From the IMG/VR virus record IMGVR_UViG_3300045988_074507: a stretch of 43,225 nt of DNA. The stretch is one strand, 5' to 3'. Position 1 is the stretch's first letter. Every line of letters starts with the position of its first letter. Below, one piece after another: positions 3,193-43,225 of this stretch. This DNA comes from a virus. The position numbers and the translations under genes were made by a program. The notes under the pieces were generated by a model that was given only the letters and a program-made list of their open reading frames with translations, had not been told where the DNA came from and did not search any database.

Positions 3193-3657
3193 ATGAGAAG
3201 AAAGAAAAAACGAAAATATTACTATTACATAAGCAAATTAAAGCGCTACGCAATCAACGCCATAAAATTTGCGATTGAAATTCTATGGATTTTAGCCACG
3301 GCAAGGATAGTAATTTTGGCGATCATGTACAGTGCTGTATCTAGCAAGATCGTATCCGAAACGATCATAATTAATTCAATTATCACGATTAAGACAAGCA
3401 TTGAACAAATACGAATAGACAAGGAAAAGAAAGCCGAACATTTCAGATTGTTTGAACAACAGATCGCTTTAATGATTTATTACTTCCAAGGATGCGGGCA
3501 AATGACGCCGAGAGAATCACAGAAATTAATAAAGATCGTAAAACTGGCAGCAGATAACAACGGATGGAGAAAGCAGAAAGAAGCAGATAAAGAAGAATCC
3601 GAAGACGAAGAACAAGAAAACAAAGAAACAGATACAAACCAGGAGGAAACAAAATGA
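3193..3657 (+). CDS. Predicted membrane protein with acidic C-terminal tail, translationally coupled to DGR target 2
   Basis: 154 aa. Basic N-terminus, then a long hydrophobic stretch (FAIEILWILATARIVILAIMYSAV), then an E/D-rich tail. Stop TGA 3655-3657 overlaps ATG 3654 of the next gene. Confidence 0.65.
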   Translation: MRRKKKRKYYYYISKLKRYAINAIKFAIEILWILATARIVILAIMYSAVSSKIVSETIIINSIITIKTSIEQIRIDKEKKAEHFRLFEQQIALMIYYFQGCGQMTPRESQKLIKIVKLAADNNGWRKQKEADKEESEDEEQENKETDTNQEETK

Positions 3658-4652
3658 AGCATGAAAATGTGATTGTAGGAGACAGATACGGAAACGAAAA
3701 CTATATGGTAAAATTCACGCCCAACAAAGAGAACCCGGAGCCAATGTTCAAGATTGGCGACAAGATCGCAAAGGCGGTATACATTTCAAAATATTTAAAC
3801 GCAGACAAGAACGGCGTACCGTGTTCGCTTCCGGGGTGCGATCCGATGCGCTGTATAAGTTTCGAAAATGCAGAGAAGAAATGCAGAGAAAAAGGCGAAG
3901 GTTGGCACATGTTGACGAATGCAGAATGGATGTACTTATATAACGAGAGCGTGAAAAACGGCACGATCCCACACGGTAATACAAACTATGGATATTATGA
4001 AAAAAATACAAATGAAAGCGGGATCAATGTAAACGGAAGCGGTGCAACATTAACAGGAACAGGACCCGCTACCTGGTATCACGATCACACACTTGACGGC
4101 GTGGCAGATCTTTGCGGGAACGTTTGGGAAATGGTTACAGGATTAAGATTGCAAAACGGAGAGATTCAGTATATCGAAAACAACGACGCAGCAGTTTGTG
4201 ATGCTGGCGAAGATAGCTTGAAATGGGAGACAATCACAGCAGATGGCAAGAAGATTTGCTTTTCTGTGAACAATGAAAAAAATAAGATCACGATCAGAAA
4301 AGGAACAAAGCACACCGGATGGAACGGAATAGCTTATAAAGATTTAAAGATCAAGAAAAGCGTCATGGCAGCAGCAGGAGAAAAACTTAGAGAAATCGGG
4401 ATCATTCCAGACGATTACAAAAACGAAGACGCTTATATTTGGATTGATACAGAGTTAACCGAAGCAATGCCGTGTCGTGGTTCGAGTTTCGACAACGCCA
4501 GCGGCGGTGGCGTTGCGTCGCTGGGTCTGGGCTACACGCGCACGTATAGCGACTACAGCATAGGCTTCCGGTCCGCTTATGTAGAACTGGAAACTGGCAA
4601 CGGTAAAACTGTTAAGGCTGCGGAAGCAGACGGGAAGGAAATGACCGAATGA
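3654..4652 (+). CDS. DGR target protein 2 (remote): FGE-sulfatase/C-type-lectin-fold protein with C-terminal variable region
   Basis: 332 aa, paralogous to 33026-34069 (GWHMLTNAEW, GNTNYG, GTGPATWY, DLCGNVWEMVTG, NGEIQY). The C-terminal CRGSSFDNASGGGVASLGLGYTRTYSDYSIGFRSAY is encoded by VR2, which matches the TR. Confidence 0.85.
   Translation: MKHENVIVGDRYGNENYMVKFTPNKENPEPMFKIGDKIAKAVYISKYLNADKNGVPCSLPGCDPMRCISFENAEKKCREKGEGWHMLTNAEWMYLYNESVKNGTIPHGNTNYGYYEKNTNESGINVNGSGATLTGTGPATWYHDHTLDGVADLCGNVWEMVTGLRLQNGEIQYIENNDAAVCDAGEDSLKWETITADGKKICFSVNNEKNKITIRKGTKHTGWNGIAYKDLKIKKSVMAAAGEKLREIGIIPDDYKNEDAYIWIDTELTEAMPCRGSSFDNASGGGVASLGLGYTRTYSDYSIGFRSAYVELETGNGKTVKAAEADGKEMTE
4468..4578 (+). repeat. 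DGR variable region 2 (VR2)
   Basis: 111 nt align without gaps to TR 34575-34685. There are 12 mismatches, and every one is at an adenine of the TR. Confidence 0.9.
4616..4631 (+). promoter_or_regulatory. Hairpin downstream of VR2 (candidate DGR target-recognition structure)
   Basis: ggctgc-ggaa-gcagac (one mismatch in the stem), lying in a 54-nt flank that is 42/54 identical to the flank after VR1. Confidence 0.5.
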
Positions 4653-5220: not shown

Positions 5221-5994
5221 ATGAAAACATTATCAATTATTAATTTAAAGGGCGGAGTTGCAAAAACAATATCTAGCGTAAATATGGCGCACGTCATGGC
5301 AGCAGTACACGGTTACAAAGTGTTATTAATCGACAACGACAAGCAAGGAAACGCAAGCAAAATCATGAACCGACACAGCTACAAAAAGCCGGGAATCGCC
5401 GAGATTATGACAAAAAGACATATCGACATGGAACAGATCATCCAGGAAACGGACTACCCGAACTTAGATATTGTTACGGCAAACATGAATTTGCTTAGTG
5501 CAAACCTGGAGGTTATGTTAGATCAGCAAAGACCACAGCAGATACGGATCAAGAAAGCGCTAGACCAGATAAGCAGTAAATACGATTATTGCGTTATTGA
5601 CAACGCACCGGACATTAATATAAGCACGATCAACGCACTTGTGGCGTCGGATGATGTTATGATCCCGATCACAATTGATGATTTTGCACTGGACGGACTG
5701 GAAGAACTAAAAGAACAGATCAACAATACAAAAGAGGATCTAAACCCGTCACTGAATTTTGCGGGATGTTTTATAACACAGTACGACAGACAGAACGAAG
5801 CAGACGTGCAGGGCGAGGAATTTTTAAACACATTAGAATATCCGGTATTTTCTACCCACATTAGAAGAACACCAAAAATGAAGCCGTCTACGTTCGCAAG
5901 AAAGCCAATTCTTGAATACTCTAACCGATGTGGGGCAGCGATCGACTATAAGAAACTGGTAGAAGAATACATAAGCAAGACAAAGGGGGAGTAG
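5221..5994 (+). CDS. parA: ParA/Soj-family partition ATPase
   Basis: 257 aa. Deviant Walker A NLKGGVAKT near the N-terminus, LLIDNDKQGN, and a Walker B-like YCVIDNAP. Confidence 0.85.
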   Translation: MKTLSIINLKGGVAKTISSVNMAHVMAAVHGYKVLLIDNDKQGNASKIMNRHSYKKPGIAEIMTKRHIDMEQIIQETDYPNLDIVTANMNLLSANLEVMLDQQRPQQIRIKKALDQISSKYDYCVIDNAPDINISTINALVASDDVMIPITIDDFALDGLEELKEQINNTKEDLNPSLNFAGCFITQYDRQNEADVQGEEFLNTLEYPVFSTHIRRTPKMKPSTFARKPILEYSNRCGAAIDYKKLVEEYISKTKGE

Positions 5995-5997
5995 AAG

Positions 5998-7512
5998 ATG
6001 GCGGAAAAATTCAATCTTATGCAGATGTTAAGCGAGAGATCGAAGAAAGAAGCTGACGAAACGACGCAGAAAGAGGACGAATTGACAAACGAAAAAATGA
6101 TAATGATAGACGTAGAAGACCTGGTAGAATCCAAAGATAATTTTTACCATGTTGACACGAAACTAAAAGCATCAATCGAATACGCGGGAATCTTACAGCC
6201 TTTACTTGTAAAGGAATTAGAAGACCAGGAAGGAAAATATTTGGTACTTGCCGGGCATAACAGACGCCTGGCAGTGCTAGAACTCTTAAAAGAGGGAAAA
6301 GAACGATTTAGAAAAGTACCGTGTGTACTAAAAGAAAAGACACTAGAAGACAAGGTAGCGCTAATTATGGCGAACAGATTCCGAGATAAGACAGACTGGG
6401 AGCGAATGAACGAAGCGTTAGAGACAGAAGAAATGGCAAAAGAGCTAAAAGAAAAGCTAAATTTACCAGGGAAAACAAGAGCGATCTTATCCGAGCTTGT
6501 AGGAGTATCAGAAACGCAGTTAGGACGTTACAAAGCAACGTACAATAATTTGATACCAGAATTAATTGAAGCACTAAAACAGGACAAAGCACCATTTAAC
6601 GTTTTGTACGAAGTAAGCACATTACCGGAGCAATGGCAGAGGGCGGCACTTGATACGTTACGATGGGAAAACGAACTGACGTTACAGGATGTAAGAGAAT
6701 TAAAGAGACAAGAAAAAGAACGCCGGCAGATTCCAGGGCAGCAGGATCTTGAGTTTGAAGAACCTGGAGAAGCAAACGGATCAGAGACAGAAGAAGAACA
6801 AACGGAAGAAAATCTGCAGGAAGATGATTACCAGGAACGGGAAGAATACGAACAGGACGAAGAAGAAAAAGCAGAAGGATCAATGCACGATTTATACAGC
6901 GCATTACAGGCGTTTGCGGAAAAAGTGCAAAAAAAGATAGAGAGATCGCCGGAGATCATCGAAGCAACAGAAGAAGCGTTAGAAAATTTTATGACGTATT
7001 ACTGGGGAATGAATAACAATGGCGGAACACTGGACGGATCAAACGGGTTCGAAGGATGGTACGAAGCAACAAAAGAAAAAATACAGATCAACGATGAAGA
7101 GTTTCATATGATCGCAGAAATGACATGGAAGAAAGCAGCAGCAACGCTTTTGGACATGATCGACTTTGAAAAAGCAAACTATGGAAAGAATGAACAGAAT
7201 AACGAAACGGTAGAGATCCTACAGACGAACAAGGCAGCAGAACCGGAACAAAGCGAATTAGATACAAGGCATAAGATCAAGATCGCCGGGAGTGTATTTG
7301 AAGACGTAAGGGACGGCGCAAAACCGTTCGAACTATTAAAAAATGATAGAGATTACAAGATAGGACAAATTATTCTATTCAGAGAAATGGTAGATGGAGA
7401 GCCAACAGGAAGAGAGACAGAAAAAGAAATAAGCTATGTGACAAAAGGCTATGCAGGACTAAAAGAAGGATATTGCATCTTAGGACTGAAAGACACAGAA
7501 GGAGCATGGTAG
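5998..7512 (+). CDS. parB: ParB-like N-terminal domain protein fused to a C-terminal DUF3850/ASCH-like domain
   Basis: 504 aa. The ParB/Srx box is GILQPLLV...LAGHNRRLA, followed by an HTH-like ILSELVGVSETQLGRYK and a long acidic linker. The C-terminus HKIKIAGSVFEDVRDGAKPFELLKNDRDYKIGQIILFRE matches the DUF3850 signature (FE.RKNDRD...GD). Confidence 0.75.
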   Translation: MAEKFNLMQMLSERSKKEADETTQKEDELTNEKMIMIDVEDLVESKDNFYHVDTKLKASIEYAGILQPLLVKELEDQEGKYLVLAGHNRRLAVLELLKEGKERFRKVPCVLKEKTLEDKVALIMANRFRDKTDWERMNEALETEEMAKELKEKLNLPGKTRAILSELVGVSETQLGRYKATYNNLIPELIEALKQDKAPFNVLYEVSTLPEQWQRAALDTLRWENELTLQDVRELKRQEKERRQIPGQQDLEFEEPGEANGSETEEEQTEENLQEDDYQEREEYEQDEEEKAEGSMHDLYSALQAFAEKVQKKIERSPEIIEATEEALENFMTYYWGMNNNGGTLDGSNGFEGWYEATKEKIQINDEEFHMIAEMTWKKAAATLLDMIDFEKANYGKNEQNNETVEILQTNKAAEPEQSELDTRHKIKIAGSVFEDVRDGAKPFELLKNDRDYKIGQIILFREMVDGEPTGRETEKEISYVTKGYAGLKEGYCILGLKDTEGAW

Positions 7513-29589: not shown

Positions 29590-30703
29590 GAGAAGTTATC
29601 CAGACGTTGATTTTGTAGAAACAGATCCGGAAAAAATGCTGACGGATTTAATAACAAGCTATGAAAATACAAGCGGTTATGTACTACAGCCAGCATCGCC
29701 GGAAAAATTATTGATTGCATGGCTTGCATCAATTCTTGTACAACAGAACGTAAAAATTAACGAGACTGCGAAAATGAATGTATCACGCTACGCAAAAGGA
29801 GAAAAATTGGACAGCCTGGGCGAAATATTCAATGATACGCAACGACTACCGCCAACAGCCGCGGAAGCAACATTCAGATGTTATATTTCAAAAGTGCAGA
29901 AAAGCAGCGTATATATTCCAGAAGGGACAAGGATCACAGCAGACGGCGATATCATGTTCGCAACAAAAGAAATGTTGGAAATAAAACCGGGCGAAATGTA
30001 CGGAGACGTTGTGGCAGTATGCAAGACAGCCGGAGAAGAAGGGAATGGATACCAACCGGGACAGGTTAAAGAAATAGTTGACGTTTATGATTATTATCAA
30101 AAAATTGAAAATATAACAACAAGCGCCGGAGGTGCAGGAGAAGAAAGCGATGCAGACTTTTATGAGAGGATGCGGGAAAGCACCGAAAGTATAACGACAG
30201 CAGGACCGGAGAACTCTTACAAATACCATGCAAAAAGTGTATCTAGTGCAATAACAGATGTTAAGGCAGCGAGTAAACAACCGGGCGTTGTTGACGTAAG
30301 AGTTCTTTTAAAAGGCGGAGAAGAAGCCACAGAAACAATATTGAAAAAAGTAAAAGACGCATTAAGTGCAGCTGATATTAGACCAATGACAGACTATGTA
30401 ACAGTATCAGAACCAGAAAAAGATGAATACAGTATAGATCTTGATTATTACATTACAAAAAACAGTAGTGCAAGTGCAAAAATTATAGAAAACGATGTAG
30501 AAGCAGCAATCGAAGAGTACATAGCATGGCAAAGCGAAAAAATGGGACGCGACATAAATCCGTCGAAACTGATATCGCTTGTAATGGCAGCAGGAGCAAA
30601 AAGGGTAGATCTGAGAAAACCGGTTTTTAAAAGCGTTGAAGATACACACATAGCAGCATTAAAAGAAAAAAGCATAACGAACAGGGGAATAGAAGATGAG
30701 TAA
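29582..30703 (+). CDS. Baseplate J-like protein (gp47/XkdT analogue)
   Basis: 373 aa, positioned between the gpW-like and gpI-like genes with overlapping starts and stops. Confidence 0.7.
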   Translation: MSERSYPDVDFVETDPEKMLTDLITSYENTSGYVLQPASPEKLLIAWLASILVQQNVKINETAKMNVSRYAKGEKLDSLGEIFNDTQRLPPTAAEATFRCYISKVQKSSVYIPEGTRITADGDIMFATKEMLEIKPGEMYGDVVAVCKTAGEEGNGYQPGQVKEIVDVYDYYQKIENITTSAGGAGEESDADFYERMRESTESITTAGPENSYKYHAKSVSSAITDVKAASKQPGVVDVRVLLKGGEEATETILKKVKDALSAADIRPMTDYVTVSEPEKDEYSIDLDYYITKNSSASAKIIENDVEAAIEEYIAWQSEKMGRDINPSKLISLVMAAGAKRVDLRKPVFKSVEDTHIAALKEKSITNRGIEDE

Positions 30704-31712
30704 TAAGATTTATGATACAGATTTTTCAAAAATTTTCCCGAACGTTTTACAAAAAGATGAAAGCATGATGGCGATTGCGAAGGTGGCAACAGAAAAATTA
30801 CTAGAGATAAGTAATTCGATTGATAAAGTTCTGATCTATGCCAATATTGACAAATTGCCAGGCGAAATTCTTGACATACTAGCATACGATATGCATGTAG
30901 ATTGGTATGACGAAACATACCCGGTAGAAGCAAAAAGAGAAGTTATAAAAAGCAGTGTTACAGTACATAAGAAGATGGGAACAAAATATGCAGTCGAAAA
31001 AGCACTAAGGGCAGTACATCCGGCAAGCTGTATCGAAGAATGGTTCGAATACGGCGGGAATCCGTATTGTTTCCGGATCATATGCGACACAACAGAGAGC
31101 AAGGTACAAGCGAACTATGAAGAAATCGTTAACACTGTAAATATATATAAACGATTATCAGCACATTTGGACAGCGTGACATACCAGGCACACGCTACAA
31201 TGTTAATCACAACAGAAACAGGGTGGTATATTTATCGTACACCATTAACAGGAAAGACGATCACAGGAACAAAACCGCAGCGAAACATAAAAGGAAAAGA
31301 AATAAAGGCAAAATATACAGTAAAAACAAGTAGAGCAAATTACAAGTACAAAAGCAGACAAGCTGGGACTTATCCGCAGCGAAACATAATTTTTAAAAAC
31401 ACAGAAGAAACAACAAGGATAACAATAGAAAAAAATAAAGTTAAATACAAAGTACCAGGGACAGGAAGAACAAAAACCGGAACACACCCACAAAGGAATT
31501 TAATTTTTAAAAATCAAAATGAAAAAGTACAAGTAAAAGCAGAGACGAAGAAAACGAAGTTTAAAACGCCAATGACTGGGAAAACGACAACAGGAACAGA
31601 ACCGGAAAGAAATAGAGTTGGAAAAGAAAGAGAAAAGGAAATGGCGGCAAAAACAAGCGTAGAAAATTACAGCTATAACACAAAAATGTGTGGAAGCAAT
31701 AAAAAACTATAG
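30696..31712 (+). CDS. Tail protein gpI-like (XkdU analogue) with C-terminal four-fold repeat extension
   Basis: The N-terminal half (FPNVLQKDESMMAIAKV...ILDILAYDMHVDWYD...GTKYAVEKAL) is P2 gpI-like. The C-terminal 160 aa carry four degenerate units ending TGKTITGTKPQRN / AGTYPQRN / TGRTKTGTHPQRN / TGKTTTGTEPERN. Confidence 0.65.
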   Translation: MSNKIYDTDFSKIFPNVLQKDESMMAIAKVATEKLLEISNSIDKVLIYANIDKLPGEILDILAYDMHVDWYDETYPVEAKREVIKSSVTVHKKMGTKYAVEKALRAVHPASCIEEWFEYGGNPYCFRIICDTTESKVQANYEEIVNTVNIYKRLSAHLDSVTYQAHATMLITTETGWYIYRTPLTGKTITGTKPQRNIKGKEIKAKYTVKTSRANYKYKSRQAGTYPQRNIIFKNTEETTRITIEKNKVKYKVPGTGRTKTGTHPQRNLIFKNQNEKVQVKAETKKTKFKTPMTGKTTTGTEPERNRVGKEREKEMAAKTSVENYSYNTKMCGSNKKL

Positions 31713-32691: not shown

Positions 32692-33022
32692 GGTAGTAGA
32701 AAAGACAGAAGGAGAACATATCAGCTACGAGGTAAATAAAAACAAGATTACATTCGGAGACGATGAACTAACGATCAACCTTGCAGCAAAAGAAAGAGAT
32801 TATCCAGTAATGTTGGATATTTGCAAAGACAAAGATGAGGGGCTTGTGATCGGGACAGGTGGAGCAGCAAAAGAGTATGTAGCGCAGATCGAGATTCCGG
32901 AAAGACAATACGACATTGTAGACGGGAAAGAAAAAGAAAATGGAGAGATCCAGGCGACGAGAGTACCAGAAGAATTTGATATCAGCAGATGCACATTATA
33001 TCTGTGGAAAGTAGAGGTATAA
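32681..33022 (+). CDS. Hypothetical protein (113 aa), upstream partner of DGR target 1
   Basis: ORF with GGAAGGAG RBS. Confidence 0.6.
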   Translation: MSIKVVEKTEGEHISYEVNKNKITFGDDELTINLAAKERDYPVMLDICKDKDEGLVIGTGGAAKEYVAQIEIPERQYDIVDGKEKENGEIQATRVPEEFDISRCTLYLWKVEV

Positions 33023-33025
33023 ACA

Positions 33026-34069
33026 ATGGGAAATTTTGACGATTTAGATTTAGCGGTGGCAAGTTTTGGAGCATCGAACAAGGTAGTTTATGACGACGTG
33101 GAAAAGCCATCTATCATGGTTGCAGTGCCTAAAATGACATATGCAGACCTTATCACAGGCGGAACGCAGGATGTATTGCCGTGGTGGATTGTTGACGGTG
33201 TAGAATTAGATCAAATTTGGGTAAGTAAGTATCAGAATATCGTTATGAATGACCGCGCATATTCACTTCCGGCAAAAGATCCGAAAACATGGATCAACTT
33301 CGACCAGGCACTAGCAGCGTGCAGAAAGAAGGGGAAAGGTTGGCATTTGAACCAAAACGGAGTTTTTGCGTGCTTAAATCTGTTAGCACAGAAAAATAAT
33401 TGCATTCCGCGAGGAAATACAAACTGGGATAAATCATACGAAGCAGGATACGAAAGAGGTGTAAATACATACATTGACGGAGAACACAAGGGCGGAAGAA
33501 TCGCGACAGGAACAGGACCGAAAACGTGGTATACAGATTATGACACTTCGGGAATTGCAGATCTTTGTGGCAATGTTTGGGAATGGGTATCCGGTATGCG
33601 CATCGTTAACGGAGAAATTCAGATCATTCCGACAGGAAGCGCAATTAAATTAGATTGCAACATGGGGGCAAATAGTACCGAGTGGAAAGCGATTAAGCCA
33701 GACGGCAGCGTAGTAGAACCAGGAACAGAAGGAACACTGCACTATAACGTAGTAAGCGGAAAGATCGTAATTGATACAAAAACAGATTCTACGACGAGTA
33801 ACAACATTGCATTTAACGATCTGGCAGCAGCGAGCGGGGTACAGATCCCACAACTTGCAATTGCCGCAGGCGTGATTAAAGATAGTGCCAGCGTTTGGGC
33901 AGCACCTGGGCATAGACAGTATTTGAATACAGAAGGAGAACGGTTGCCGTGTCGTGGTTCGAGTTTCAGCAACACCAGCGGCGGTGGCGTTGCGTCGCTG
34001 CTTCTGGACAACACGCGCACGGATAGCGACAGCATCATAGGCTTCCGGTCCGCTTATGCGAAACTGTAA
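33026..34069 (+). CDS. DGR target protein 1: tail-fibre-module receptor-binding candidate with FGE-sulfatase/C-type-lectin fold and C-terminal variable region
   Basis: 347 aa. GWHLNQNG, GNTNW, GTGPKTWY, DLCGNVWEWVSG and NGEIQI. The C-terminal CRGSSFSNTSGGGVASLLLDNTRTDSDSIIGFRSAYAKL is encoded by VR1. Confidence 0.9.
   Translation: MGNFDDLDLAVASFGASNKVVYDDVEKPSIMVAVPKMTYADLITGGTQDVLPWWIVDGVELDQIWVSKYQNIVMNDRAYSLPAKDPKTWINFDQALAACRKKGKGWHLNQNGVFACLNLLAQKNNCIPRGNTNWDKSYEAGYERGVNTYIDGEHKGGRIATGTGPKTWYTDYDTSGIADLCGNVWEWVSGMRIVNGEIQIIPTGSAIKLDCNMGANSTEWKAIKPDGSVVEPGTEGTLHYNVVSGKIVIDTKTDSTTSNNIAFNDLAAASGVQIPQLAIAAGVIKDSASVWAAPGHRQYLNTEGERLPCRGSSFSNTSGGGVASLLLDNTRTDSDSIIGFRSAYAKL
33939..34055 (+). 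repeat. DGR variable region 1 (VR1)
   Basis: 117 nt align without gaps to TR 34569-34685. There are 9 mismatches, all at TR adenines. Confidence 0.92.
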
Positions 34070-34091
34070 ACTGGACACGGATAAACTGTTA

Positions 34092-34109
34092 GGGCTGCGG
34101 CAGCAGCCC
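34092..34109 (+). promoter_or_regulatory. GC hairpin downstream of VR1 (candidate DGR homing hairpin/cruciform)
   Basis: gggctgc-ggca-gcagccc, a perfect 7-bp stem with a 4-nt loop, 37 nt after the VR1 end. Confidence 0.6.
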
Positions 34110-34141
34110 AATAGAAATAGAAGAAATAAGAGGGAGACAAC

Positions 34142-34543
34142 GTGCAAGAACTGAATGGTATAAAAGATAATGCGAAAATGAACGATTTTAAAATGAAAAA
34201 TAAAATTTATGAAATGATCATATATGCAAGTCCGTGTTTAGATCAGTTTCCGAGATCTGAAAAGTACGCATTAGCACAAGACATAAGAAAAACGATGTAT
34301 AAAATCTTGCGCCTGGTTGTAATGCTAGAGAACAAACATTACAAGAAAACAACGTTAGGAGATCTTGATACGGAGGTAGACGTATTAAGGCATCTAATAA
34401 GATTGGCGGCAGATAACAGACTACATCCGAAACAAGCACCGTGTCTGCCAATGAAGAAATACGAAAATCTATCAAAACACCTAGCAGAGATAGGAAAAAT
34501 GATAGGCGGTTATGAGAAATATATAAATACAAAGAGTAAATAA
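34142..34543 (+). CDS. avd: DGR accessory variability determinant (Avd)
   Basis: 133 aa, basic and helical, located between the target gene and the TR. The pattern F.MKNKIYEMIIYASPCLDQFPRSEKYALAQDIRKT...L fits Avd four-helix-bundle proteins. GTG start follows a GAGGGAG RBS. Confidence 0.8.
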   Translation: MQELNGIKDNAKMNDFKMKNKIYEMIIYASPCLDQFPRSEKYALAQDIRKTMYKILRLVVMLENKHYKKTTLGDLDTEVDVLRHLIRLAADNRLHPKQAPCLPMKKYENLSKHLAEIGKMIGGYEKYINTKSK

Positions 34544-34568
34544 AAATGTATTGGGAGATAGTCATTTC

Positions 34569-34685
34569 AACGGTTGCCGTATCGTGGTTCGAGTTTCAAC
34601 AACACCAGCGGCGGTGGCGTTGCGTCGCTGAATCTGAACAACACGCGCACGAATAGCAACAACAACATAGGCTTCCGGTCCGCTT
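34569..34685 (+). repeat. DGR template repeat (TR)
   Basis: Non-coding copy of the VRs. In the VR reading frame it carries AAC/AAT codons (aac aac, aat, aac aac, aat, aac aac aac). By my count it has about 29 adenines in 117 nt. Confidence 0.92.
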
Positions 34686-34706
34686 CGCCCTAATGATTGT
34701 CAGAAG

Positions 34707-34728
34707 ATTGATTTTTACGGAAATCAAT
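34707..34728 (+). promoter_or_regulatory. Hairpin in the TR-RT spacer (candidate DGR RNA spacer structure)
   Basis: attgattt-ttacgg-aaatcaat, a perfect 8-bp stem, 22 nt after the TR end. Confidence 0.45.
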
Positions 34729-34912
34729 ACAGTACACTTAGGTTTAAGGGGCTATCTTCCATTCTTAGTATTTGACAAAATACAAAAGAAAAAGATTAAA
34801 TTGCCGTGAAAACAGTTAGTAAACAAGAGTTGAAAGCCTTGTCGGATAGATATGTTACGTTCCTGGGGGAAATGGATTTGCACGGCGAAATAAATACACA
34901 AAAGGGGAATAG

Positions 34913-36001
34913 ATGAAAAGAATTAAGAACATCTTTTCAGAAATCTATGACTTTGAAAATCTGTATTATGCGTACAAGGACGCAATAAAAGGAAAGAGAT
35001 ACAGAGAAGATATAATGCTTTATACAGACAAATTAGAAGAAAATCTGATTGAGTTACAAAACGAGTTGATTTGGAAAACTTACGAAGTCGGAGCATACAG
35101 AAGATTTTATGTGTATGAGCCAAAGAAACGTTTAATAATGTCTTTGCAGTTCAAAGATCGAGTAACACAACACGCAATTTACAGACAAATCAATCCAATA
35201 CTGGATAAGCAGCTGATCGACGACACGTACGCGTGCCGGAAAGAAAAAGGATCGCACAAAGCGGTACATAAGCTGCAGAACTGGATGCGGAAAGACGAAA
35301 GAAAAGGAAGATACTACTATCTAAAGCTTGATATTGCTAAATACTTTTACAGGATCGATCATAAAGTTCTGATGAATATTCTTGAAAGAAAAATCGCAGA
35401 CAAAGACTTATTAGAGGTATTCGATAAGATTATAAATTGCGAAGATACAAGATTCGGTTTGCCGATCGGCGCGGATATTGCGGACGTAAACAGCGAAGAA
35501 ATGCTTCTAGGCGTAGGGCTGCCGATTGGGAACTTGACATCACAAATGTTTGCAAATTTATATCTAAACGAATTAGATCAATTTGCAAAGCACAAATTGA
35601 AACTAAAACAGTATATACGATACATGGACGATATTATAATACTGCACGAGGACAAGAAAGAACTCGGAAGGATCAAAACAGAGATTGAAAGATTCTTGAA
35701 TGAAGAACTACATCTGCAGTTAAATAATAAAACGTGTATAAGACCAACCACAATGGGGATAGAATTCGTAGGATTTAGGATATGGAGTACGCACATAAAA
35801 CTGCGGAAACAAACCGTTAAGCGAATGAAAAGGAGGTTAAAATATGTGTTTACACATTACGAAAACGGAGAAATCGACAAAGAAACATTAGATCGAAGCA
35901 TAGCTTCATATCGTGGGATTTTAAAGCATTTTGAAAGTTATGGATTAAGAAACAGTTTAAATGAATTATATAAGCAGGAGGTAACAGAAAAATGGATGTA
36001 G
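34913..36001 (+). CDS. DGR reverse transcriptase
   Basis: 362 aa. YMDD catalytic box (IRYMDDIIIL) and the DGR-type motif LPIGNLTSQMFANLYLN ([ILV]GxxxSQ). No maturase or endonuclease extension. It lies directly downstream of avd and the TR. Confidence 0.92.
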   Translation: MKRIKNIFSEIYDFENLYYAYKDAIKGKRYREDIMLYTDKLEENLIELQNELIWKTYEVGAYRRFYVYEPKKRLIMSLQFKDRVTQHAIYRQINPILDKQLIDDTYACRKEKGSHKAVHKLQNWMRKDERKGRYYYLKLDIAKYFYRIDHKVLMNILERKIADKDLLEVFDKIINCEDTRFGLPIGADIADVNSEEMLLGVGLPIGNLTSQMFANLYLNELDQFAKHKLKLKQYIRYMDDIIILHEDKKELGRIKTEIERFLNEELHLQLNNKTCIRPTTMGIEFVGFRIWSTHIKLRKQTVKRMKRRLKYVFTHYENGEIDKETLDRSIASYRGILKHFESYGLRNSLNELYKQEVTEKWM

Positions 36002-36408
36002 CAGAAACAATCCGGGCGACACTTGCAGCATTAGCCGGGATTGGGATAGTGATAGATTTTGCGCCAGGAATCAAATTGGAGCCAGTACGCTACATAATTA
36101 GAAAACTGGGAGATTTATTAAATGAAGACGTAAAAAAGCAATTAGACAAGATTGAGGACGATTTTAGAATTCACAAGATAGAATCCTGGCGTTACGAGAT
36201 CTTAGCATTTGCGAACAGCTGCATGAGACACGAGAAGCACACGAAGGAAGAATTTGATCACATAATAAAGATACATGACGATTATACAATTTGTGTGGAA
36301 CGTTACAAGATGAAGAACGGGCAAGTAGATCTTGCAGCGGAATATATCGAAGAAATATATAAAAGATGCCTGGAAGAAAATAGTTTTTTGACGGGCAAGA
36401 CAAAATAG
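35992..36408 (+). CDS. Hypothetical protein (138 aa)
   Basis: ORF overlapping the RT stop. Hydrophobic N-terminus (LAALAGIGIVIDFAPG). Located between the RT and the holin. Confidence 0.55.
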   Translation: MDVAETIRATLAALAGIGIVIDFAPGIKLEPVRYIIRKLGDLLNEDVKKQLDKIEDDFRIHKIESWRYEILAFANSCMRHEKHTKEEFDHIIKIHDDYTICVERYKMKNGQVDLAAEYIEEIYKRCLEENSFLTGKTK

Positions 36409-36418
36409 GAGGGACAAA

Positions 36419-36889
36419 ATGAAAGAGTTATTTTTAGAAAACAAATTAGCGTTTATCGTAGTTGTTGCGATTCTGATCGCAGCATTTGCAGTAAAAAAAG
36501 CGGTAGAATACATTACAAAAAAAGGACTGGAAGGAATCCGCCTGGATGTGTACAAGTTATTTGTACAGGCAGAAGAAGCATATAAAGAATCTGGACAGGG
36601 GCAAAAGAAATTTAAATACGTTGTAAGCCTGGCAAGATCAATGCTGCCTAAAGCGGTACAGGTATTTGTTACACAAGAAATGTTAGAAACAGCCGTACAG
36701 CTATGGTTCGACGGCGTAAAGGATTTATTAGACGATGGAAAGCTAAATAATTCGACAGAAGAAGTGCAGGAGTTAAATATAGAAGATAAGATCATGCACA
36801 AAACAGAATTAGACGACGGTACATATAAAAACTATGCAAAAAATCCATTGCCGGAAACAGATCGCGAAGATACAGCGGACCAGGAATAA
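36419..36889 (+). CDS. Holin, LL-H family-like
   Basis: 156 aa. An N-terminal TM helix (LAFIVVVAILIAAFAV) is followed by a helical domain (VQAEEAYKESGQGQKKFKYV...). Immediately upstream of the endolysin. Confidence 0.6.
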   Translation: MKELFLENKLAFIVVVAILIAAFAVKKAVEYITKKGLEGIRLDVYKLFVQAEEAYKESGQGQKKFKYVVSLARSMLPKAVQVFVTQEMLETAVQLWFDGVKDLLDDGKLNNSTEEVQELNIEDKIMHKTELDDGTYKNYAKNPLPETDREDTADQE

Positions 36890-38150: not shown

Positions 38151-39533
38151 CTAAGCGAACGAAACGCTAACAATATTAAGATCGCGATCGATCACGACTT
38201 CTTTTAAAACAGACTGCCAAAACATACGCTTTTCTTTACGATCAAGACTTTTGTACATTTCTGTAAAATTATTGTCCAGAAGTTCATGCACACGTTTAAA
38301 GTTTGGTGCCGGTTCTTCCTTTTCAATCTGATCGTTTAACCGATCGAGGGCGTTCGAATACATTTCAAAATCCTTTTTGTATTCATCAAGTTCAATCAGT
38401 TCATTCAAATACAAGTCCTTTAATTTAGATAATTTTCTCTTTAAAGTAGCCCGCTGGATAATTACCGGGTTGTTTTGCTTCTTTTTTGCTTTCATAGTCC
38501 ATTCAAGTTCACACTTGTTGAGTTCTCTTTCCAGGTTTTCGAGCAGGTATTTTTCAATCTTATCTTCTCGAATAAAGCGATTATGAGTGCAACGTTTTCT
38601 CAATGCAAAATCATTACAACGGTAATAATAAATGCCCTTGTTAAGCTGTCCGCAAAGATTATGACCACATTCGTAGCATTTTAAGACTGACGTAAAAATA
38701 TAGATTCTTCCTGCCGGAGTTCGTTTCACATTTTTACCCAAAATCCTTTGAATGTTATCAAATTGTTGTTTTGATATGGCAGCAGGGCAGAAGTTCTCGT
38801 TATATCTTCCGTTCTTATCATAGACACCGATCAGAAGCTTATCTCGGATCATACGGGCAAAAGAAGCATAGCACCAGTTGATACCGTATTTTTCGCGTAT
38901 ATATGTAACGGTGCCACGTTGCGTCATTTCTTTTTCGAAGTAGTCCAGAGCGTCGCGAATGATCTCGACCTTTTCGGGATCGAGCACATAACGTTTATCC
39001 TGGACTTTAAGCCAAAACGGAGCGTTACCAGACAAAACAGTACCATGTTGAACTTTAGAATCGAACACAACGCCGATACGCTCTGAACAAATATCGGATT
39101 CATTCTGCGATATAGAAAGCTTTACGTTAATGTATAAACGACCGTTTGCGGTTGTTGTGTCATAATCTTCGTCGGATGTTACCCAACCGCAGTTATGAGC
39201 GTTTAAAATATCCATGATCTTATAATAGTCAGCAACAGATCGAAACCAACGATCAAGGCGGCAGAAAACAAGCACATCGTATGCATCTTGTTTTACACCG
39301 TCGATCATGTTTTGAAATTCAACACGCTTCTTTATATTCTTCCTGGCAGTCTTAGCGGCATCAATAAAAACGCCGCAGATCAGCCAACCACGTTCCTTGC
39401 AAAAATCCCGCAGTCGTTCTTCCTGGGCTTCCAAAGATAGCCCCTTGATTTTTTGTTCTTCGCCGGACACACGTATATATAACGCTGCACGGACAAGAGT
39501 TGTTTCAGATTTAGCTTTTTTCATTTGAACCAC
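38151..39533 (-). CDS. int: Large serine recombinase (phage integrase)
   Basis: 460 aa. The resolvase-type catalytic N-terminus is AALYIRVSGEEQ...LSLEAQ...VLVFCRLDRWFRS. It also has a recombinase domain, a zinc-ribbon CYECGHNL...YYRC and a C-terminal coiled coil. Confidence 0.9.
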   Translation of the reverse strand: MVQMKKAKSETTLVRAALYIRVSGEEQKIKGLSLEAQEERLRDFCKERGWLICGVFIDAAKTARKNIKKRVEFQNMIDGVKQDAYDVLVFCRLDRWFRSVADYYKIMDILNAHNCGWVTSDEDYDTTTANGRLYINVKLSISQNESDICSERIGVVFDSKVQHGTVLSGNAPFWLKVQDKRYVLDPEKVEIIRDALDYFEKEMTQRGTVTYIREKYGINWCYASFARMIRDKLLIGVYDKNGRYNENFCPAAISKQQFDNIQRILGKNVKRTPAGRIYIFTSVLKCYECGHNLCGQLNKGIYYYRCNDFALRKRCTHNRFIREDKIEKYLLENLERELNKCELEWTMKAKKKQNNPVIIQRATLKRKLSKLKDLYLNELIELDEYKKDFEMYSNALDRLNDQIEKEEPAPNFKRVHELLDNNFTEMYKSLDRKEKRMFWQSVLKEVVIDRDLNIVSVSFA

Positions 39534-42974: not shown

Positions 42975-43225
42975 GATAATATTACTCAATTTCCACAGAC
43001 AGAGATACAACAGTGCATCATTCATCAGATACGAAATACCACAAGATATGTATCTTATAAAGACAATCGAAAAGTAATGGCTGACCTAAAGGCAGTCTAT
43101 GCTGCACCAACGGAAGAGATCGCTTTAGAAAATCTTGAAGATTTCGGAGAAAAGTGGAACTCAAAATATCCAAAAATCTATAAATCATGGAGCGAACGCT
43201 GGGCAACACTGGCTACTTATTTTAA
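42975..43225 (+). pseudogene. IS256/Mutator-family transposase fragment (joins 1-363 across the junction)
   Basis: The frame opens after the stop at 42972-42974 and reads DNITQFPQTEIQQCIIHQIRNTTRYVSYKDNRKVMADLKAVYAAPTEE.... FP..EIQ.CI.HQIRN is a conserved IS256 block. The N-terminal roughly 60 percent of a full transposase is absent. Confidence 0.8.
43107..43225 (+). repeat. Terminal direct repeat, copy 2 (identical to 1-119)
   Basis: Same 119-nt string as the window start, consistent with a circular-assembly overlap or terminal redundancy. Confidence 0.9.

Follow-up and report, generated by a model that had tools for sequence, protein, structure and literature searches.

Diversity-generating retroelements (DGRs) have been catalogued by the thousand, phages of gut Clostridia are rich in them, and the order target gene, avd, template repeat (TR), reverse transcriptase (RT) gene is their commonest architecture. 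The element considered here occupies positions 33026-36001 of IMGVR_UViG_3300045988_074507, an IMG/VR virus record of 43,225 nucleotides (this whole stretch is referred to as the window), and is very probably a complete and functional DGR of that common layout, in which one TR serves a variable repeat (VR1) in the adjacent target gene (target 1) as well as a second one (VR2) in a remote paralogue (target 2). For the prototype of these elements, that of Bordetella phage BPP-1 (mtd-avd-TR-brt), it has been established that a complex of the RT and the accessory variability determinant (Avd) binds the spacer, that priming takes place at an internal 2'-OH and that bases are misincorporated at adenines (PMC6182149); homing to variable repeats marked by a sequence for the initiation of mutagenic homing (IMH) and a hairpin has been described as well (PMC3240598). 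The window element resembles BPP-1 in its gene order and its placement between tail and lysis genes, in the IGxLTSQ and YMDD motifs of its RT, in having an Avd homologue and a structured spacer RNA between its TR and the gene for its RT, in TR/VR differences that are confined to adenines, and in a GC hairpin with a GRNA loop past the VR (PMC3240598). It differs in that the target is a single-domain protein like TaqVP instead of the trimeric, multi-domain Mtd (PMC6328139), and in that there are two targets rather than one. Moreover, the hairpin stands 36 nt from the VR, compared to a few nt in BPP-1, an (A/T)ACTG repeat array that BPP-1 does not have is present, and the spacer belongs to the RNA motif RT-14, whereas that of BPP-1 belongs to RT-10.

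As a DGR, the element is nothing new in kind and is an ordinary member of a well-known class. Phage DGRs with two targets or with a non-adjacent target have also been described already: two targets occur in about 13% of the catalogued DGRs (Wu et al. 2018, PMC5758913), and many of the phage-associated ones combine an adjacent target with a non-adjacent one within 50 kb (PMC5758913). The window element has in common with the catalogued two-target DGRs that a single TR serves two VRs. In the tentaclin phages nd4 and nd12, the targets are topologically unrelated and belong to one cassette (PMC10743442), whereas those of the window phage are paralogues, the second of which is found among replication and partition genes. 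The Faecalibacterium phage Lagaffe and the Bacillus phage BalMu-1 share with the window the order of a P2-I-like baseplate gene, three small open reading frames (ORFs), target, Avd, TR, RT and lysis genes, and carry the repeat array in an ATCTG version; two VRs, with evidence of variation in cognate genomes, have been published for Lagaffe-type prophages (PMC11792537). A megablast search with the 3-kb element against GenBank phages gave no match, and relatives were found at the protein level. The closest cultured one is Clostridium phage Saumur (ON453901), an induced prophage of Enterocloster clostridioformis, whose RT is 69% identical and whose genome is syntenic, with the same gene order, repeat array and hairpins. 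Saumur also has two targets. Of its VRs, the adjacent one, with 14 adenine mismatches, is found where the baseplate module ends, and the other, with 14 adenine mismatches plus 1 of another kind, belongs to a paralogue that neighbors the replication initiator. The differences are that the nucleotide identity is about 64-71% over part of the genome, that the second target is upstream of Rep in Saumur and downstream of it in the window phage, and that the TR of the window has one AAC codon fewer. The value of the window element does not lie in its class: it is a clean and complete example in a circular genome, with one TR for two paralogous targets, and its natural variants show both VRs being rewritten and following changes of the TR.

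The first-pass annotation of the window had proposed a complete DGR (target, avd, TR and RT) at the end of the tail module. Each of these defining components was tested and found. The element contains three co-directional ORFs on the + strand (of 347, 133 and 362 aa). It follows immediately on the baseplate genes (baseplate wedge, Tail_P2_I and similar) and precedes the lysis genes, and its location at the end of the tail module is thus as had been stated. The parts that were described then all stand, while the picture was incomplete in that VR2 and its gene had not been noticed, nor had the spacer RNA, the hairpin or the repeat array; the remote target, the signs of recent activity and the VR-specific array usefully add to it. 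The proposed pairing of the TR with VR1 is ungapped over 117 nt with 9 mismatches (at 33951, 33969, 34001, 34002, 34007, 34022, 34028, 34032 and 34035), 9 of 9 being at TR adenines, which has a hypergeometric p of 1.2e-6 given the 29 adenines of the TR. The annotation had named beforehand a mismatch at a non-adenine position as the observation that would speak against it, and on realignment there is none between the window TR and VR1. The pair was also reported independently by a repeat finder (family D1, 92% identity), and on either side the homology breaks off abruptly, without a single further matching base. The TR is placed between the stop of avd (34543) and the start of the RT gene (34913), and VR1 is at the extreme C-terminus of target 1, as had been noted, with its end 14 nt before the stop codon; a location at the 3' end of the gene is usual for the VRs of DGRs. 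Read in the frame of target 1, the codon changes listed earlier (TAT>TGT, AAC>AGC, AAT>CTT, AAC>GAC, AAT>GAT and the triple change AAC AAC AAC>GAC AGC ATC) are exact. In this frame 27 of the 29 TR adenines are at codon position 1 or 2 and nine TR codons are AAC or AAT, and the design is indeed proof against stop codons, as none of the 17 adenine-containing codons is able to mutate to one. The seventeen variable codons correspond to a theoretical repertoire of about 10^15.5 peptides per protein.

The ORF between target 1 and the TR had been described as basic and Avd-like, in agreement with its match to the DivGenRetAVD equivalog (NF033474, 101.3 bits with a cut-off of 80) and its isoelectric point (pI) of 9.5. 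It also matches the Pfam family bAvd (PF22296, 93.2 bits with a cut-off of 40), and has a GTG start behind a GAGGGAG ribosome-binding site. Avd is present in about 74% of DGRs, which makes it typical and not obligatory (PMC5758913). The RT motifs named earlier are present, with IGNLTSQ at aa 205-211 (nt 35525-35545) and YMDD at aa 237-240 (nt 35621-35632), in agreement with the [ILV]GxxxSQ and YxDD patterns of the DGR subclass, and the assignment of the RT to the DGR type, the second point on which the annotation could have failed, is upheld by the match scores among solved structures: its best solved relative is the RT of the Bordetella phage DGR (bRT, PDB ID: 8ub7; E 1.5e-59, 205 bits, residues 2-353), far ahead of group II and retron-type RTs (at most 80 bits). 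An alternative would be that the three repeats arose by plain duplication or gene conversion, and that they stand beside an unrelated RT of a group II intron, a retron or a defence system. It could be pointed out in its favor that group_II_RT_mat (TIGR04416) is the best-scoring NCBIfam model for the RT, and that PADLOC lists RT and DRT models. However, the score with the former is 131 bits for a cut-off of 300, that with the Retron St85 RT is 53.9 bits for a cut-off of 235, and those with Drt2, Drt3a and Drt5 are far under their cut-offs, while the PADLOC matches are to generic RT or DRT models only, with none for the neighboring genes, and are without discriminating value. A search of the window with Rfam gave neither a group II intron RNA nor a retron RNA, the match to bRT is full length, and an Avd equivalog stands between the target and the TR. 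In addition, when both VRs are taken together, 21 of 21 mismatches are at adenines of the one non-coding copy, the TR. We give such an origin practically no chance, and consider it refuted as far as sequence analysis allows.

The whole window was scanned with the TR, ignoring its adenine positions, which gave one additional site. This site, VR2, differs from the TR at adenines in 12 of 12 cases (p 5e-9, calculated on the last 110 nt of VR2). Its distance from the TR is about 30 kb when counted in window coordinates and about 13 kb across the circular junction, and it ends 74 nt before the stop of its ORF, target 2, which is 42% identical to target 1 (BLASTP E 1e-61) and belongs to the same PHROG (phrog_2889, E 2e-89). 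Target 2 also matches the FGE-sulfatase family PF03781 (28.4 bits, above the cut-off) and, over its core, the TaqVP structure (PDB ID: 5VF4, E 5e-33). Its neighbors form a replication and partition region, with a rolling-circle-type Rep, a VRR-NUC nuclease, ParA and ParB, and both its start and its stop codon overlap adjacent genes. The distance in window coordinates could suggest that VR1 is the sole real target and that the paralogue shares its repeat by descent without being rewritten, and the hairpin after VR2 is indeed weaker, and the TR homology starts 6 nt later in VR2 than in VR1. It is, however, documented that targets served by one DGR can differ in their 5' boundaries (PMC5758913), and the remote copy of Saumur behaves alike. 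Not only do all the differences of VR2 fall at adenines, but VR2 also carries the bases that are specific to the window TR (T26 and GG42-43), and varies at 12-19 adenine sites among relatives with flanks that are 96-98% identical. That VR2 should not be rewritten is therefore very unlikely, and we show here that two genes are rewritten from the single TR: that of the C-type-lectin-fold protein with which the baseplate module ends (VR1), and that of a paralogue in the replication and partition region (VR2). The coordinates of all features are collected in Table 1.

Table 1. Features of the element and of its remote target, in window coordinates.
Feature	Position	Strand	Evidence or description
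Target gene 1 (347 aa), with which the baseplate/tail module ends	33026..34069	+	ORF; PDB 5VF4; phrog_2889
VR1, 3'-terminal variable repeat of target 1	33939..34055	+	117 nt compared with TR, 9 adenine mismatches
VR1-specific (A/T)ACTG repeat array, 7-8 nt period	34061..34088	+	flank alignment of relatives
GC-rich hairpin/cruciform GGGCTGC-GGCA-GCAGCCC	34092..34109	+	sequence, DNA fold, covariation
avd, accessory variability determinant (133 aa, pI 9.5)	34142..34543	+	NF033474, PF22296
TR, template repeat, non-coding, 29 adenines	34569..34685	+	adenine-specific pairing with VR1 and VR2
Structured spacer RNA between TR and RT gene	34688..34845	+	Rfam RF02921 (RT-14), full-length model match
DGR reverse transcriptase (362 aa)	34913..36001	+	RVT_1; PDB 8ub7; IGNLTSQ and YMDD motifs
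Target gene 2 (332 aa), paralogue of target 1	3654..4652	+	BLASTP, PF03781, phrog_2889, 5VF4
VR2, second variable repeat from the same TR	4468..4578	+	111 nt, 12 mismatches, all at TR adenines
VR2-specific repeat array and weaker hairpin	4584..4631	+	conserved with the VR1 flank, absent after TR

Stretches with a related RT were collected from IMG/VR (384 in total), and the counts of related loci given here refer to the best 80 of them. An adjacent, adenine-biased TR/VR pair is present in 69 of these 80 loci, which are more distant relatives. Four IMG/VR contigs are much closer, with RTs that are 99-100% identical and flanks that are 96-98% identical to those of the window. In these contigs, 13-17 sites separate VR1 from the contig's own TR, and with a single exception they are adenines. 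VR2 is present in four loci of close relatives, two of which are on contigs from this set, and its adenine-site differences from the TR number 12-19. When the window is compared with these near-identical phages, VR1 shows 0.14-0.15 differences per nt and its flanks 0.015-0.039, while VR2 shows 0.15-0.19 in the four relatives and its flanks 0.02-0.035. Both VRs are about ten times more variable than their flanks, and nearly only at TR adenines; in the majority of the pairwise comparisons no other stretch varies as much as the VR, and the TR hardly changes. The few changes of the TR are informative in themselves. Compared to phages that are 98% identical, the window TR has a C>T change in column 26 (34594) and an AAC>GGC change in columns 42-43 (34610-34611), and this state is the derived one, since Saumur has the C and AAC state. 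Both window VRs carry T26 and GG42-43, whereas the VRs of the relatives have C in column 26 and varied bases in columns 42-43, where their own TR has adenines. As the window VRs share these private changes of the TR, sequence passed between the TR and both VRs after the split from the 98%-identical relatives. The window TR has thereby one diversifiable AAC codon less, and the three changes, which lie within 18 nt, could be either a short patch of VR-to-TR conversion or independent mutations.

The loss of two adenines by the AAC>GGC change of the TR could also be read as decay, in which case the element would be a fossil DGR that keeps recognisable parts and old VR/TR differences while homing has been lost; the imperfect hairpin after VR2 would fit this. 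On the other hand, all the ORFs are intact, with the catalytic YMDD motif and ribosome-binding sites, genomes with 96-98% identical flanks differ at 14-19% of the VR positions, nearly only at adenines, and the presence of the window-specific TR changes in both window VRs dates a transfer after the split from the 98%-identical relatives. We find a fossil quite improbable and retain the reading of a functional DGR, for which the pattern of ongoing mutagenic retrohoming (changing VRs and a constant TR) is apparent at the level of related assemblies.

Apart from the genes and repeats, three elements that probably act in cis were recognized. The first is the spacer RNA, whose match to the RT-14 model begins two bases after the TR and scores 58.2 bits, above the gathering score of 48.1. 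Alignment of 25 related spacers reveals 10-17 compensatory changes per pair in the helix that comes first after the TR. The spacer is conserved as blocks of sequence together with this one strongly covarying helix, and the Rfam model misses most of the lineage. The motifs RT-1 to RT-19 were originally found beside RT genes, RT-10 being located in the TR-RT spacer of BPP-1 (Weinberg et al., PMC5737381), and the authors guessed that others among these motifs belong to DGRs (PMC5737381). By analogy, the RT-14 spacer is presumed to be the part of the DGR RNA that binds Avd and RT and primes itself. The second element is the hairpin after VR1, which starts 36 nt past VR1 and consists of a GC stem of 7 bp closed by a GGCA loop. 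According to Guo et al. 2011 (PMC3240598), hairpins of DGR targets combine a GC stem of 7-10 bp with a GRNA loop of 4 nt, and the VR1 hairpin agrees with this as to stem and loop, while its distance of 36 nt is just outside the published 4-34 bp. In a set of 30 distinct relatives, pairing in a 9-bp stem amounts to 92% and 41 changes are double-sided, a level that 0 of 500 shuffles reach (controls slid along the alignment are 29-56% paired), and the hairpin starts 36-37 nt past the VR in most of them. No terminator-like site was found in 32900-36500, and the hairpin itself is not terminator-like; it is presumed to be a target-recognition element.

The third element, the repeat array, fills the interval between the two. 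Its units after VR1 are AAACTG (34061-66), AAACTG (34068-73), a degenerate ACACGG (34075-80) and AAACTG (34083-88), and those after VR2 (4584-4611) are GAACTG, AAACTG, CAACGG and AAACTG. Three to four ACTG per 40 nt are found in 28 of 30 distinct VR flanks of the relatives, for a background of 0.11, while the TR flanks have zero or one. The array occupies a near-constant 36-37 nt between the end of the TR homology and the hairpin in the window and in its relatives (L001-L080, L085, L087 and L088), and the ATCTG version of Lagaffe and BalMu-1 is shared by two of the related loci (L069 and L072). After VR1 the array is mostly non-coding, the stop codon of target 1 being at 34067-34069, while after VR2 both the array and the hairpin sit inside the coding tail of target 2. 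Since the array is non-coding in one case and coding in the other, the constraint acts on the nucleic acid. Pairing of the array with the conserved CAGU-containing stretches of the spacer RNA was considered but is not supported, as the four lineages with the ATCTG version have no matching CAGAT. A literature search for repeats in the IMH region gave nothing relevant, which is a weak negative and not proof of novelty; with this reservation, the array is the only feature of the element for which we did not find a description, and it may be an undescribed, protein-binding element of target recognition.

With regard to the proteins, a C-type-lectin fold with an FGE-sulfatase signature had been proposed for target 1. 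Variable proteins of DGRs usually have this kind of fold, which tolerates the variation. The Pfam match to the FGE-sulfatase family is below the cut-off (19.1 compared to 23.3 bits), but the fold assignment stands despite this weak score because of the strong match to 5VF4 (E 2.7e-53, residues 12-344, with the VR aligned on the VR). 5VF4 is the structure of TaqVP, the variable protein from a DGR in a Thermus aquaticus prophage, which is monomeric and has a single domain with a C-type-lectin fold of the FGE type (PMC6328139). Target 1 aligns with it over nearly the full length, its VR opposite the C-terminal VR of TaqVP, and target 2 over the core; the differences are in the host phylum and in the lengths of inserts, and the window proteins are known from sequence alone. 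Target 1 also matches phrog_2889 (E 3e-112), and by homology is a single-domain variable protein with a C-type-lectin fold of the FGE subtype. Gene position and homology indicate that it is most likely a receptor-binding tip, in which case the element would serve host-range adaptation. The situation could be different for target 2, which is translationally coupled to its neighbors and may not be a receptor-binding protein of the virion; it could be a diversified binder whose site of action is within the cell, during infection or lysogeny, or at some other structure. The role of the second target of a DGR has been discussed as unclear (PMC10743442), and if target 2 is a non-virion binder, the function of phage DGRs extends beyond adsorption. 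Taken as one proposal, a non-virion role for target 2 together with the array as an undescribed protein-binding recognition element seems rather doubtful to us. Saumur is in culture and is present in the OMM12 mouse consortium, which makes both the function of target 2 and the role of the array experimentally testable.

By analogy with BPP-1, the TR would be transcribed together with the structured spacer (the RT-14 RNA), which the RT-Avd complex would bind in order to prime cDNA within the RNA from an internal 2'-OH. The TR would then be copied with random bases inserted opposite the template adenines, and the cDNA would replace a VR. Recognition of the VR would take place via a VR-specific sequence on its 3' side, here presumably the (A/T)ACTG array followed by the GC hairpin with its GRNA loop. 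Several points weigh against this account and against an active DGR. Transcription, priming and homing rest on the Bordetella model, while the RT is only 37% identical to the Brt of BPP-1 (over 97% of the length of Brt). The gathering score of RT-14 is reached in only 3 of 15 relatives, and the hairpin after VR2 (GGCTGC-GGAA-GCAGAC) is imperfect, with 5 of 6 pairs formed and a GGAA loop. One of the close relatives (L003) has a non-adenine difference between VR1 and TR (T>G, column 52), which is the only such case among five VR1 copies, that of the window included. Activity in the sampled population is deduced from differences between assemblies, and the receptor-binding role of target 1 comes from its position and homology only, TaqVP itself being without a known ligand.

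The window is a circular contig, as nt 1-119 are identical to 43107-43225, which leaves a unit of 43,106 bp. Its gene content (terminase, portal, major head protein, tail sheath, tape measure and baseplate proteins) is that of a phage, and the order past the baseplate genes is target 1, avd, TR, RT, two small ORFs and an amidase-SH3 lysin. The genome is that of a circular, 43.1-kb temperate phage of the myovirus type from gut Clostridia, and the host is most likely a member of the Lachnospiraceae, the family in which genomic prophage relatives (RT 69-74% identical) are mostly found. A serine recombinase is encoded on the opposite strand. The replication initiator, ParA, ParB fused to DUF3850 and the large serine recombinase were located at 1099-2040, 5221-7512 and 38151-39533, and the combination of a rolling-circle-type initiator, ParA/ParB and a serine recombinase brings together features of integrating and of plasmid-like prophages. 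An ORF of 138 aa (35992-36408, phrog_37604, of unknown function) overlaps the stop of the RT gene by 10 nt. Of the 80 related loci, 61 have a homolog of it, as does Saumur, downstream of the RT among the matches listed, and it could be either a gene of the lysis cassette or a conserved gene linked to the DGR. The Tail_P2_I baseplate ORF (30696-31712) has a C-terminal extension (31239-31678) in which a motif of about 33 aa (TGKT.TGT.P.RN...) recurs several times in tandem, the copies having diverged; they were detected as direct repeats D2, D5 and D9. Finally, a fragment of 130 aa across the junction (43077-363) resembles the C-terminal part of an IS256-type transposase, a family assignment made by eye only.

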